Below are positions 24,120-33,822 of a stretch of 64,000 nucleotides of DNA, one piece after another. Where the stretch lies: the NCBI RefSeq assembly GCF_056746865.1, contig NZ_CM163382.1; one strand, given 5' to 3'. How positions within the stretch are numbered: the first letter of the stretch is position 1; the number at the start of each line of letters is the position of its first letter. Below the pieces are notes generated by a model that searched no databases, was not told the DNA's origin, and worked only from the letters and a program-made list of their open reading frames with translations. Made by a program: the position numbers and the translations under genes.

Positions 24120-25616
24120 TCAGAACCAGGTTTCCATCTGAACGCCAAAATTCCATTCCCCGCCTGCATTAAACCCGCTACCGCCGAAAGCATCATCACT
24201 GGCGTAGTTATCCAGTCTGCTGCTCCAGTCCATCCAGGTGGCGAACAGACGCAGTTCCGGACGGCTGAAGAAGTCCCCCAGACCTCCTGCCTTGAGGGTG
24301 GGCGCAAACGTCAGCTTGTAAAAACTGCCGTTAACAGCATTGCGGTCCTTATACCCTTCAGGTTTCAGATCCATGTACTGGTAAGTGCCCTCAAACGCCA
24401 GCGCAAAATTCTGCGTCACCTCCTTAATCAAGCGGGTGTTCAGGGTCACCCATTCATAACTGTCTCCACGGGCATAGCGATCCTTACTGCCCTGCGCCAT
24501 GACTGACGGGGCGATATGCCAGCCGTTTCCGAGCGGGGTGGTACCATATGCAGCAAGACGCCAAGTATCCGCATCACTGCGTAGTGCACCGTCAGAGCCA
24601 ATCCCCTTCACTTCCGCCCCCAGACCATGCCCGTACAGAAGTGCTATTTTCGCCGTTCCCTCACGTAATCCCCAGAAACTGTCATTATGAAGTCCGGCCA
24701 ACACATGCACACCGTGGCTGGCGGCACTGGCATGGATAAGGTCGCCATTATTGTCCCTGCGGTCATCATTATCCTTTGCCCGCATACCGCTGACCATAAG
24801 CTGGAACGGCCCGGCAAAGTGGTTCATGGTAAGGATATAGTTCTGGACGTTGTTATCGATATCCTCCATCTCCCCGAAATTGCGTCCATACAGGGAGAAG
24901 TTACTGCGCAGAGTGTCGTTCCATTTCACGTCATAGATACCGCCCCCGGTTCCGCCGAGGAAAACCACGTCCGAGTCCAGCCAGTGGATATCAAAGTTGT
25001 CACGATCGAAACGTTTACCCGCCCATACCGTACTGTGCTTCAGCGGCCCGGTGAAGTCCGGCAGATTTCCCAGTTCAGCCACCACCTGGCGGACGTTAAG
25101 GTCACTGGAGTTCGCCGACCAGTCGTTATAGGTTTTCTGACCATCCGCCAGCATCACCTTAAACCGGGTGGTGGCCCCGCTTTCGAGCGTCTTTTTGTGC
25201 TCAAACACGGTTTCCACATAAGTGTCTCCCTCATTCCCGAGGCGCCCGACCGAGCCACCGGTCTCTCCGGCAGGCGTCAGATACGGACCACTTTTGCTGC
25301 CGGATGCGGCATCGTTCATCAGCAGACCCGAGCGGGCATAGCCGTGAAACTCAAAACCACTATTGTCCGCTTTCTTTTCCGGTGGTACGGATACGGTCTG
25401 TGGCACAACAGGTTGTGTCGCCGGGGTGGCGGCCAGTTGCTGCACCTGCTGTTCTGTAGCGGTTGCCCGTGATTCAGCCTTCTGAGCACGGGTTTCAGCA
25501 TCCTGAAGCCGTTTTTCCAGGGCCGCCAGCCGGGCTTCAATACTGTCGGTATTCCCCGCCGCAAAGACCGGGGAACAGGCCAGCAGAATGGCACACGAGA
25601 GAAGGTGTTTTTTCAT
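24120..25616 (-). CDS. Sucrose/raffinose-type glycoporin (ScrY/RafY family, LamB-like) with N-terminal coiled coil
   Basis: Signal peptide, coiled-coil [24 protein letters not shown]-terminal FGVQMETWF; similar along its length to remembered ScrY. Confidence 0.8.
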
Positions 25617-25715
25617 TTTTATATCCTTGTAAAAATAGAGGTATTGTTGACAGCTAAATCGATTTAGTCACCCGCAACAAAAATGACGTGCACAACGGTT
25701 ACGGGCAGGAAACGG

Positions 25716-26642
25716 TCAGGGGTGTTTCAGTAAATCCTGGCGACGGGGTAACGCTGTCATGGCACCTTTTGCTGTCGTGGCAAGCGCACCACAGCGCTGG
25801 GCCTGTTCGATGACGGATGCGAGTGCCTGCTCACCGGAGGGCATCCCCTCTGCCGCCAGCGCCGCCAGCAGACCTGCCACGAAGGCGTCACCGGCACCGG
25901 TCGTGTCCACACTCACCACCGGTGTTGCCGGGAAGTACAGGTTTTTTCCCTGCCAGCGAGCCATCACGCCATCCTTTCCTTGGGTTACCAGCAGCAGTGC
26001 CAGGGGATAATGTGATGCCAGAACATCGGTTCCCTTCCGGACATCCTGTTCACCGCTGATAAAGAACAGTTCCTCTTCCGATACCTTTGCCACATCCGCC
26101 AGCATGAGCGCCCGGTGCAGACACTCACGCAGTTGCGATGTGCTCTGCCACAGGTCAGTCCGGATGTTGGGGTCAAAGCTGACCCTGCCGCCAGCCTGCC
26201 GGATGTTCTCCATGGCCTGAAACGTGGCGCTGCGGCAGGGCTCTGCACTCAGGGCATTGGAGCAGGTATGCAGCCATTCACCGGCACGAAAGGGCGGTAA
26301 ATCATCAGGGGTAAGGAAAAGGTCTGCCGAAGGGCGCACCATAAATGTGAAGGTTCGTTCACCACCCGGCACCAGCGACACCACCACTGTGGAAGTCCGG
26401 TACAGAGGGTCGGTATGCATATACGCCGTGTCCACACCCTCATCAGCCAGGGTTTTGCGCATAAAACGCCCGAAAGGGTCATCCCCCACACACCCGACAA
26501 ACCCGCTCAGGCCCCCCAGTCGGGCCACGCCCACGGCAACATTGGCAGGCGCACCACCAGGGCACTGCAACAGCGTGCCCGGCTTCTCCGGTAATAAATC
26601 CACCACGGCATCACCGAGACCCCATACTTTTACTGTACTCAT
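25716..26642 (-). CDS. PfkB-family fructokinase (ScrK/CscK-like)
   Basis: GDAVVDLLP...CPGGAPANVAVGVARLGG...DTTGAGDAFVAGLLA ribokinase-family motifs. Confidence 0.75.
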   Translation of the reverse strand: MSTVKVWGLGDAVVDLLPEKPGTLLQCPGGAPANVAVGVARLGGLSGFVGCVGDDPFGRFMRKTLADEGVDTAYMHTDPLYRTSTVVVSLVPGGERTFTFMVRPSADLFLTPDDLPPFRAGEWLHTCSNALSAEPCRSATFQAMENIRQAGGRVSFDPNIRTDLWQSTSQLRECLHRALMLADVAKVSEEELFFISGEQDVRKGTDVLASHYPLALLLVTQGKDGVMARWQGKNLYFPATPVVSVDTTGAGDAFVAGLLAALAAEGMPSGEQALASVIEQAQRCGALATTAKGAMTALPRRQDLLKHP

Positions 26643-32718: not shown

Positions 32719-32811
32719 AAGACATCTCCGTTTTCGGGTATGCCTTACTGTTGATCCGAATCGTTTCGGATAGCAACCGAAACGATTCGAATTTGTGAGC
32801 GGGATTAAAAA

Positions 32812-33822
32812 TCAGGCGGAGGGAGCAAGCGTTGTCTTGCCAGGATGAAATTCCGGCTGCCAGAGTACTTGTAGCATTTCAGGTGAAACATTCGTGACCA
32901 GCTGGCGTATCATGTCGTCAATCTGACGACCGACGCGATGTCGTGTTGACTGAAGAACTGCAGCCACATCCTGTTCAATAATACTGTCCTGCGGCAGACC
33001 ATCATAAACCACAAGAGAGACGGCATCCTCTCCGGACAGATGACCGGATAACTGCAGCGACATGGCCGCGCCATCACCGATCAGGTCACTGTCGGTAATA
33101 ATGGCCGTCGGGGGAAGCGGAAGTGACATTAACTCAGTCACTGCCTGGAAACCTGAGCGTCGGGTGGGAGAGACCCGGCGTAGCCAGGTCTCAGGCAGAC
33201 CATGTTCACTCAGGGCATCGCGCCATCCCTGACGTCGTGCAGTGACATAGGCACGGGAGTTGTCCTCACTCAGCAGGGCAATTCGCTGATGGCCCAGGGC
33301 AATCAGGTGCTGTGTGGCCTGCCAGGTTCCTGCATGGTTATCAAAGTCAAACCAGGCACAGGGAAGACCGGACGGCACCTGACCGAGTGCCAGAAACGGA
33401 ATACCGGCCTCCTGCAGGTGTGTAAGACGCGGGTCATTATCCATCGTGTGCGCCACGATAAGGGCATCAACCCGGCGGCTTTCGACCAGACGCATATAGC
33501 TGTGGCTGTCAGCCCGTTCATCATCGGCTATCAGCAGTAAGTCAATATCATGGCGGGCCAGTTCCCGGCTGATACAACTGACCATATCCACAAACACACT
33601 ACTGCTGAACAGTACAGCATGTTCAGGGAAGACCAGGCCGACCGCATCGGTTTTACCGGTTTTGAGACGTCTTGCCAGGGTATTCGGGCGATAACCACGA
33701 CGCCGAGCTTCCGCTTCTACACGTGCACGGGTCGAAGCGGAAACGTCCGAAAATCCGCCAAGCGCCCGGCTGACTGTGGTGACAGAGATCCCGAGTTCGG
33801 CGGCGATAGCCTTGAGTGACAT
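32812..33822 (-). CDS. rafR: LacI-family transcriptional repressor (RafR-like)
   Basis: N-terminal HTH LKAIAAELGISVTTVSRAL plus periplasmic-binding-fold effector domain. Confidence 0.8.
   Translation of the reverse strand: MSLKAIAAELGISVTTVSRALGGFSDVSASTRARVEAEARRRGYRPNTLARRLKTGKTDAVGLVFPEHAVLFSSSVFVDMVSCISRELARHDIDLLLIADDERADSHSYMRLVESRRVDALIVAHTMDNDPRLTHLQEAGIPFLALGQVPSGLPCAWFDFDNHAGTWQATQHLIALGHQRIALLSEDNSRAYVTARRQGWRDALSEHGLPETWLRRVSPTRRSGFQAVTELMSLPLPPTAIITDSDLIGDGAAMSLQLSGHLSGEDAVSLVVYDGLPQDSIIEQDVAAVLQSTRHRVGRQIDDMIRQLVTNVSPEMLQVLWQPEFHPGKTTLAPSA

Follow-up and report, generated by a model that had tools for sequence, protein, structure and literature searches.

The window analysed here, a 64-kb stretch of an Escherichia coli chromosome, carries at positions 24120-33822 a cluster of raffinose (raf) and sucrose (scr) utilization genes that includes a paralogue of EIIA(Glc), the IIA subunit of the glucose phosphotransferase system (PTS). 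We interpret this cluster, with a probability of roughly 0.6, as a mobile raffinose module that is bounded by insertion sequences (IS) and assembled from two older units, with tuning of the raffinose permease RafB as the likeliest mechanism for the EIIA paralogue. The first unit, rafR-rafA-rafB-rafD-EIIA, would be a raf operon repressed by RafR, in which the EIIA paralogue would be an old accessory gene of raf clusters and no stray PTS gene. The second, scrK-scrY, would be the 5' remnant of a scrKYABR operon that lost scrA (encoding EIIBC), scrB, and scrR at an IS1414 insertion; a frameshifted DUF2913 gene lies between the two units.

Eight open reading frames in one orientation

The original prediction had described eight genes in a single orientation, and profile searches agree with this anatomy; all eight open reading frames (ORFs) lie on the minus strand, head to tail, from 33822 down to 24120. 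They are listed below in order of transcription, with lengths in amino acids (aa).

33822-32812, minus strand: rafR, LacI-family raffinose repressor (PF00356 and PF00532)
32718-30592, minus strand: rafA, GH36 alpha-galactosidase (PF02065 Melibiase, 385 bits, with the GH36 N- and C-terminal domains)
30537-29260, minus strand: rafB, LacY-family raffinose/H+ symporter (PF01306 LacY_symp, 682 bits; TIGR00882, 679 bits)
29263-27833, minus strand: rafD, GH32 invertase (PF00251 and PF08244, the N- and C-terminal GH32 domains)
27769-27254, minus strand: EIIA(Glc) paralogue, 171 aa (PF00358; NF006962, 235.7 bits against a cut-off of 212)
26983-26672, minus strand: 103-aa ORF, the C-terminal piece of a DUF2913 pseudogene
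26642-25716, minus strand: scrK-type fructokinase of the PfkB family (NF006957 fructokinase equivalog, 477 bits against a cut-off of 450)
25616-24120, minus strand: scrY, sucrose porin (PF02264 LamB porin, 315 bits, with the PF11471 Sugarporin_N periplasmic extension)

The gaps between these genes are short, from -4 to 99 nucleotides (nt), the negative value being the 4-nt overlap of rafB with rafD; rafB also has an alternative start, a GTG at 30552. NF006962 is the NCBI model 'PTS glucose transporter subunit IIA', and the EIIA paralogue scores above its equivalog cut-off for glucose EIIA. The scrY product has a signal peptide and an N-terminal coiled-coil extension, and it matches the crystallised sucrose porin (PDB 1A0S) with E = 8e-222 and about 80% identity. 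Base composition is even and resembles that of core genes, with a GC content of 0.54-0.60 per gene and of 0.54-0.66 at third codon positions; these two measures were considered as a marker of module boundaries and dropped, the values being uniform.

A raf operon joined to a probable scr remnant

That the cluster is a hybrid of raf-type and scr-type parts, as had been predicted, is borne out on both sides. On the raf side, the proteins are 79-89% identical to those of the classic plasmid raf operon (RafR 79%, RafA 87%, RafB 89%, and RafD 83%), the RafR operators are kept, and the DNA match, at 79.6% identity, spans rafD to rafR only. RafD is only 40% identical to ScrB; its closest relatives in species-representative genomes are the CscA-type invertases of non-PTS csc loci. 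On the scr side, we found a ScrY orthologue, a fructokinase equivalog, and a ScrR-type operator. ScrY is 79% identical over 503 aa, and ScrK 65% identical, to the proteins of the canonical scrKYABR locus of the Enterobacter plasmid pCC32; the canonical order scrK-scrY-scrA-scrB-scrR is present in locus L011. A RafY homologue was not found, and a porin of the LamB family and ScrY type stands in its place. Where scrA would follow scrY, the window has an IS fragment instead:

23104-23883, plus strand: IS1414 (IS256-like) transposase fragment, from the RefSeq annotation of the identical island

From 19539 onward the window is 99.1% identical to the chromosomal island of E. coli APEC O2-211. Neither tblastn over the 64-kb window nor the RefSeq annotation of the APEC O2-211 island revealed scrA, scrB, scrR, or any EIIBC; the earlier description of the EIIA paralogue as an orphan is thus upheld throughout the window. 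For ScrR, the window offers no better match than ebgR and rafR (28-29% identity). Taken together, the protein and DNA comparisons support reading the cluster as a mosaic in which a raf operon has been joined to the 5' stump of scrKYABR.

Between the two halves lies a pseudogene:

27248-26672, minus strand: DUF2913 pseudogene, consisting of an N-terminal 67-aa ORF (27248-27045) and the C-terminal 103-aa ORF (26983-26672)

The 103-aa ORF had been taken for a gene of unknown function, a claim that does not stand, since the ORF is the C-terminal fragment of a frameshifted DUF2913 gene. The 67-aa ORF ends at a TGA and the 103-aa ORF carries on in the next frame; the 1-nt frameshift falls within a T4C4 run near 27072-27078, where both frames overlap. 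Once repaired, the 191-aa product matches the Pfam family DUF2913 (PF11140) in a single stretch over residues 18-157 (33.4 bits against a threshold of 23) and is collinear with intact homologues of about 200 aa; the 103-aa piece alone has no Pfam match. RefSeq labels each piece separately as a 'DUF2913 family protein', and the same frameshift is found in the most diverged copy of the cluster, on a plasmid of Salmonella Saintpaul. Intact DUF2913 homologues adjoin genes for TraC/TraU, PsiA, or the IncFII RepA protein, that is, the backbones of conjugative elements and plasmids. The pseudogene, which starts 5 nt past the EIIA stop codon and is separated from scrK by 29 nt, is most likely a dead scrap of the backbone of a plasmid or of an integrative and conjugative element.

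Regulatory elements of the two units

Each half has palindromes of the type expected for its repressor, and two hairpins were flagged, one within the cluster and one at its end:

32756-32769, CCGAATCGTTTCGG, and 32777-32790, CCGAAACGATTCGA: two RafR operator palindromes, flanking a TTGCTA -35 box upstream of rafA
25653-25668, ACTAAATCGATTTAGC: putative ScrR-type palindromic operator in the scrK-scrY spacer, upstream of scrY
27803-27823, minus strand: GC-rich 9-bp hairpin in the 63-nt rafD-EIIA spacer, a terminator-like match with a weak U tail
24088-24115, minus strand: GC-rich 12-bp hairpin directly after the scrY stop codon

In a pattern search, the RafR operator pattern gave two matches, against 0.22 expected by chance, and four raf cluster types share a conserved rafR-rafA spacer with these near-palindromic operators. 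Conservation extends to the rafA promoter region, whose -10 element is weak. For the ScrR-type operator it is conservation, not the match count, that provides support, because a single match is common by chance: the pattern occurs once in the window and also once in 24 of 100 shuffles. The operator at 25653-25668 is conserved with the scrK-scrY intergenic region of pCC32, and we infer that a repressor would bind there. Since this operator is kept while the window has no scrR, scrY may be constitutive, or under the control of a ScrR-like or Cra-like repressor of the host.

The hairpin after scrY has a folding energy of -24.6 kcal/mol (z = -4.0), and none of 200 shuffles folds as well. The hairpin between rafD and EIIA is the only terminator-like element flagged between genes of the cluster, with a folding energy of -16.7 kcal/mol (z = -2.1); the rafD-EIIA spacers of Citrobacter and Klebsiella relatives, described below, have a hairpin at the same place but with a different sequence. 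Given that the genes share one strand, that their gaps are short, and that this sole hairpin has a poor U tail, a long read-through transcript together with a scrY promoter is plausible.

Family assignments suggest how the products would work together. RafR would keep the rafA promoter repressed until an alpha-galactoside appears, as its family implies. Raffinose or sucrose would cross the outer membrane through ScrY, standing in for RafY, and RafB would import the sugar by proton symport. RafA would then cleave raffinose to galactose and sucrose, RafD would split sucrose into glucose and fructose, and ScrK would convert fructose to fructose-6-phosphate, a step that the classic raf operon leaves to the host.

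Mobility and distribution of the module

Two further features define the extent of the segment in which the cluster lies:

19539-35245, 15.7 kb: mobile segment, 99.8% shared with NZ_MG591698.1, a 354-kb E. coli plasmid (blastn)
34248-35234, plus strand: IS3-family (IS2-like) transposase remnant, which bounds the rafR side

By this comparison of chromosome with plasmid, the segment 19539-35245 is the unit that moves. At its other end, 19539-23883 holds an IS3-family element that a group II intron (ltrA, 20116-21639) interrupts and that borders on the IS1414 fragment; the same intron-split structure is present in APEC O2-211 and in plasmid NZ_MG591698.1. The chromosomal island adjoins nfeF (yqjH) and aer and carries a tyrosine integrase at 42042-43358. 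Genes with YagK/YfjJ domains and of the inovirus Gp2 family at 35441-36649 mark, with this integrase, the right-hand part of the island. No tRNA gene was found in the window.

The original prediction had raised the possibility that the arrangement is widespread and already characterized. Widespread it is: the 10-kb block is present at no less than 99% identity in 184 of 5426 complete E. coli genomes, and the EIIA-DUF2913 segment at the same level in 246 of the 5426, mostly on chromosomes; the block is also carried by 9-10 plasmids of E. coli and Salmonella. The second half did not hold, in that the literature searched yielded no description of this island or arrangement, or of a raf-linked EIIA. 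As far as can be told, then, the cluster is a widespread, automatically annotated mosaic of well-known parts that is apparently uncharacterized.

Deletion derivatives of the block also exist. In the chromosome of E. coli M505 (L017) and about 24 other E. coli, the IS3/intron element abuts the position equivalent to about 27058 of the window; the C-terminal part of DUF2913, scrK, scrY, and the IS1414 fragment are gone, and rafRABD-EIIA is kept. One candidate for a diverged second lineage, L014 (GCA_019430965.1), was rejected; its DUF2913 match was only 79% and every gene was fragmented, but blastn aligned 10.8 kb of it to the window at 98.8% identity, with the alignment interrupted by 69 gap openings, which identifies it as the same cluster in an assembly rich in indels.

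Among hosts sampled at even spacing, poultry accounted for many of the isolates; others came from humans, pigs, frogs, and water. Two genome-wide association studies tie raf genes, or a chromosomal 'rafY / sucrose porin', to E. coli from chickens, and both point to the raffinose of soybean in feed (PMC12987596, PMC12815263). Raffinose-family sugars make up a large share of soybean-based poultry and pig feed, and the island, found in about 4.5% of complete E. coli genomes, is likely a diet-adaptation module. It is more complete than the textbook operon, to which it adds a fructokinase.

A rafD-linked subfamily of EIIA(Glc)

The EIIA paralogue likely starts at the ATG at 27769 (MGLLGR...), because AAGGAA precedes this codon and the resulting N-terminus matches that of Crr, the housekeeping EIIA(Glc); an upstream ATG at 27784 is less likely. 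The protein is 59% identical to E. coli Crr and, likewise, about 59% identical to solved EIIA(Glc) structures. Both active-site histidines are kept (His77 and His92, corresponding to His75 and His90 of Crr), as is the N-terminal amphipathic segment, judged by alignment: MGLLGRIKQLI aligns with MGLFDKLKSLV of Crr.

Several searches set the paralogue apart from Crr. A search of 5.8 billion clustered proteins gave no sequence with an identity to it between 98% and about 66%, and its only companions in a neighbour-joining tree of 109 sequences are the EIIAs of Citrobacter braakii and Klebsiella michiganensis. When a profile built from these three lineages was run against the same 5.8 billion proteins, five clusters at 90% identity scored 302-338 bits and every housekeeping Crr scored 267 bits or less, leaving a gap of 35 bits. 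From Vibrio to E. coli, Crr sequences share about 85% identity among themselves, whereas their identity to the rafD-linked clade is only about 60%. The states derived in the clade relative to Crr include E43G, a one-residue loop insertion, E80K/R, D94N/S, E97D, and K104R, among others. The new element is therefore a very small, rafD-linked EIIA(Glc) subfamily, which the textbook raf operon is without.

The gene appears to be maintained. Although the three lineages differ by about 40% at the amino acid level, each has an intact ORF, as does the Salmonella copy, which differs from the E. coli copy at just 6 positions, too few for a decisive pN/pS estimate. The dN/dS ratio between the Citrobacter and Klebsiella copies is 0.13, a value that indicates purifying selection. 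Plasmid matches to the EIIA at 60% identity (tblastn) were at first candidates for plasmid-borne relatives and were rejected; they are chromosomal ptsH-ptsI-crr regions filed as plasmids. Two such records, L018 and L019 (Salmonella and Klebsiella), carry a chromosomal ligA-zipA-cysK-ptsH-ptsI-crr region and probably represent either misassigned contigs of chromosomes or very large replicons of chromosomal origin.

What distinguishes the clade is its position. In C. braakii and K. michiganensis, the EIIA gene lies 63-65 nt downstream of rafD, as it does in the window (63 nt). The clusters of these two species include rafR, rafA, rafB, and rafY and are free of scr genes; no traces of DUF2913, scr, or EIIBC were found downstream of these EIIAs. 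Because related EIIAs follow rafD in these scr-free clusters, the EIIA paralogue is probably no by-product of a raf/scr fusion. Between Citrobacter and Klebsiella, dS is 1.11 for rafD and 1.23 for EIIA, compared to 0.19-0.28 for rafA and rafB; since rafD and EIIA co-diverge while rafA and rafB stay near-identical, rafD-EIIA behaves as one module. A third site resembling a RafR operator, CCGAAACCTTTCGG, lies about 210 nt upstream of rafD in the C. braakii cluster (L003, 8281-8294), which suggests that Citrobacter rafD-EIIA may be a RafR-controlled unit of its own.

The RafD of the window is sister to classic RafD (83% identity), and the Citrobacter/Klebsiella pair stands at about 68% identity to each of the two. 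No EIIA traces were found 3' of classic rafD, where homology ends at the stop codon. On the four cluster types compared, the simplest history would make rafD-EIIA ancestral to enterobacterial raf clusters, with loss of the EIIA gene in the classic pRSD2 lineage.

Possible roles of the EIIA paralogue

How might an EIIA without an EIIBC act? In the mechanism that we favor, the EIIA paralogue would be co-expressed with the raf operon and phosphorylated by HPr~P on its conserved histidine; depending on the state of the PTS, it would then tune the activity of RafB or compete with host Crr at RafB. In effect, it would do in trans what the EIIA(Glc)-like domain fused to LacS does in Gram-positive bacteria. 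We hold this RafB-directed role tentatively, at somewhat less than even odds, because the linkage to raf is tight and old with no EIIBC, because RafB regulation has been reported, and because of the LGAN motif of RafB and the LacS precedent. The LGAN motif, in the central loop of RafB, is invariant in four RafB types and belongs to what we take to be the proposed EIIA-binding region of LacY-type carriers. RafB is regulated by EIIA(Glc) according to Titgemeyer et al. (1994, J Bacteriol 176:543, as cited in PMC4996493), and phosphorylation of the EIIA(Glc)-like domain of LacS raises transport (PMC9875049). Inducer exclusion by Crr involves its N-terminal helix and His90 (PMC6906923).

A more specific form of this role is possible but doubtful: the rafD-linked clade would be a dedicated, raffinose-induced modulator of a LacY-family permease that reads the state of the PTS through HPr and either boosts RafB or shields it from inducer exclusion by Crr. 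If this were true, the gene would serve E. coli in the poultry gut as a mobile 'anti-catabolite-repression' accessory for the use of raffinose from soybean. More broadly, an EIIA(Glc) paralogue co-inherited with a non-PTS permease operon offers a genetic handle on the local rewiring of inducer exclusion.

Several observations weigh against this account. The conserved histidines and N-terminal helix fit phosphotransfer as well as regulation, and the classic raf operon works without an EIIA, so growth on raffinose does not need one. The acidic residues lost in the clade sit in what we presume to be the acidic ring that contacts HPr and IIB; if that placement is right, their loss could alter or weaken coupling to the PTS. 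These clade-specific replacements may also change the choice of partner. The linkage of EIIA to raf rests on three lineages only, and a RafD-profile scan of 100,044 species-representative genomes returned 80 loci with no adjacent EIIA and no donor; all 80 are csc-type or other GH32 loci, and none has RafA. The hairpin between rafD and EIIA could terminate transcription, leaving EIIA, scrK, and scrY perhaps weakly expressed. Finally, the reading of the junction is circumstantial, and with a gap of only 5 nt between them, DUF2913 could once have been part of the same unit as EIIA.

Alternatively, the EIIA paralogue could be a phosphoryl carrier for an EIIBC without an A domain, formerly ScrA and now PtsG, MalX, TreB, or a chromosomal ScrA of the host, its orphan status being an artefact of IS truncation; we consider this unlikely. 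EIIBC(Scr), which lacks an A domain, relies on EIIA(Glc), and scrA is expected after scrY, just where the IS1414 fragment lies. The catalytic histidines and membrane-anchoring N-terminus are also conserved, and the protein passes the equivalog cut-off for glucose EIIA. The genomic context, however, ties the gene to raf and not to scr: the same clade follows rafD in the scr-free Citrobacter and Klebsiella clusters, EIIA co-diverges with rafD, the DUF2913 pseudogene separates it from scrK, and the deletion variants retain it with raf after the loss of scrK-scrY. In addition, Crr is already present in every host, making a second donor redundant, and several acidic residues that presumably contact HPr and IIB have been replaced.

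A global role is improbable. Induced by raffinose, the paralogue would enlarge the Crr pool or compete with it, and thereby alter adenylate cyclase activation and cyclic AMP-CRP or relieve other permeases of inhibition by Crr. Structurally it is close to Crr, and its phosphorylation sites are intact; the raf promoter of pRSD2 is CRP-dependent, and the rafA promoter region here, with its weak -10 element, is conserved. Against this, the tight and repeated linkage is to rafD, not to regulators, which argues for a local role, and the changed surface residues speak against simple mimicry of Crr. Least probable is a non-functional passenger heading for decay like the neighbouring DUF2913 gene: the adjoining pseudogene, the hairpin after rafD, and a classic operon that functions without EIIA would fit such a fate, but the ORF is intact in three lineages at about 40% divergence and in the diverged Salmonella copy, is kept in the deletion variants, has invariant catalytic residues, and shows a dN/dS of 0.13.

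Other features of the window

The left part of the window holds several elements outside the mobile segment. Two IS21-family copies in direct orientation, 99.7% identical, extend from 1576 to at least 3900 and from 9408 to at least 11732. They bracket a DMSO-reductase-type operon (molybdopterin subunit, 6772-9207; Fe-S subunit, 6132-6758; DmsC-like anchor, 5363-6139), a layout that resembles a composite transposon from 1576 to 11732. A truncated GntP-family permease at 11554-12465 is followed by lutABC-like lactate-utilization genes, a D-lactate dehydrogenase (15435-17132), and a lactate permease (17564-19117); the region 11554-19117 is unlike the island of APEC O2-211, which matches the window only from 19539 onward. 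At the far left, the ORF at 85-1581 matches only domain 3 and the C-terminal domain of the R subunit of a type I restriction enzyme and looks like a fragment.

Comparison with known systems

The csc regulon (cscB-cscK-cscA-cscR) shares with the cluster the logic of permease, invertase, and fructokinase, but it has no alpha-galactosidase, porin, or EIIA, and its permease is only about 44% identical to RafB. The LacS and RafP transporters of Gram-positive bacteria offer a parallel for the EIIA paralogue: as here, a secondary carrier for galactosides or raffinose is linked to an EIIA(Glc)-type domain. In those transporters it forms a C-terminal fusion with a carrier of the GPH family, whereas in the window it is a separate protein beside a LacY-family carrier, so that the analogy would be one of function.

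Housekeeping Crr has the same fold family, length, catalytic residues (His75 and His90), and N-terminal amphipathic helix as the EIIA paralogue. In contrast, Crr is encoded in ptsH-ptsI-crr, and the paralogue lies after rafD and belongs to a separate clade, so it is not a Crr orthologue. Current labels are misleading, naming the EIIA 'crr / PTS glucose transporter subunit IIA' and dividing the DUF2913 pseudogene into two proteins.

With the scr regulon of pUR400 and of Klebsiella and Enterobacter plasmids, the cluster shares the order and orientation of scrK-scrY, a ScrY that is 79-80% identical including its N-terminal extension, and the ScrR-type operator upstream of scrY. The scr regulon has scrA, scrB, and scrR, which are absent from the window, and the region upstream of scrK is replaced in the window by the DUF2913 remnant.

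The raf clusters of C. braakii and K. michiganensis (rafR-rafA-rafB-rafY ... rafD-EIIA; L003-L008) have the same RafR operators and the same EIIA clade. Their proteins are 60-78% identical to those of the window; they carry RafY rather than ScrY and have no scrK or DUF2913. Unlike in the window, rafD-EIIA is a unit to itself, with an upstream region of its own.

The closest match for the raf half is the pRSD2-type operon, rafR-rafA-rafB-rafD-rafY (Aslanidis et al. 1989 and Ulmke et al. 1997, as cited in PMC4809568 and PMC12987596). It has the same order from rafR to rafD, the same double RafR operator around the -35 box, and the same non-PTS route through permease, alpha-galactosidase, and invertase. 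The two part at the rafD stop codon: in pRSD2, rafD is followed by a terminator and then RafY, of the Porin_8 family, with no EIIA, kinase, or DUF2913, whereas the window continues with the EIIA paralogue, the DUF2913 pseudogene, ScrK, and the LamB-family ScrY. Seen beside the other clusters, this difference suggests that the pRSD2 operon may be a reduced version of an ancestral raf cluster.

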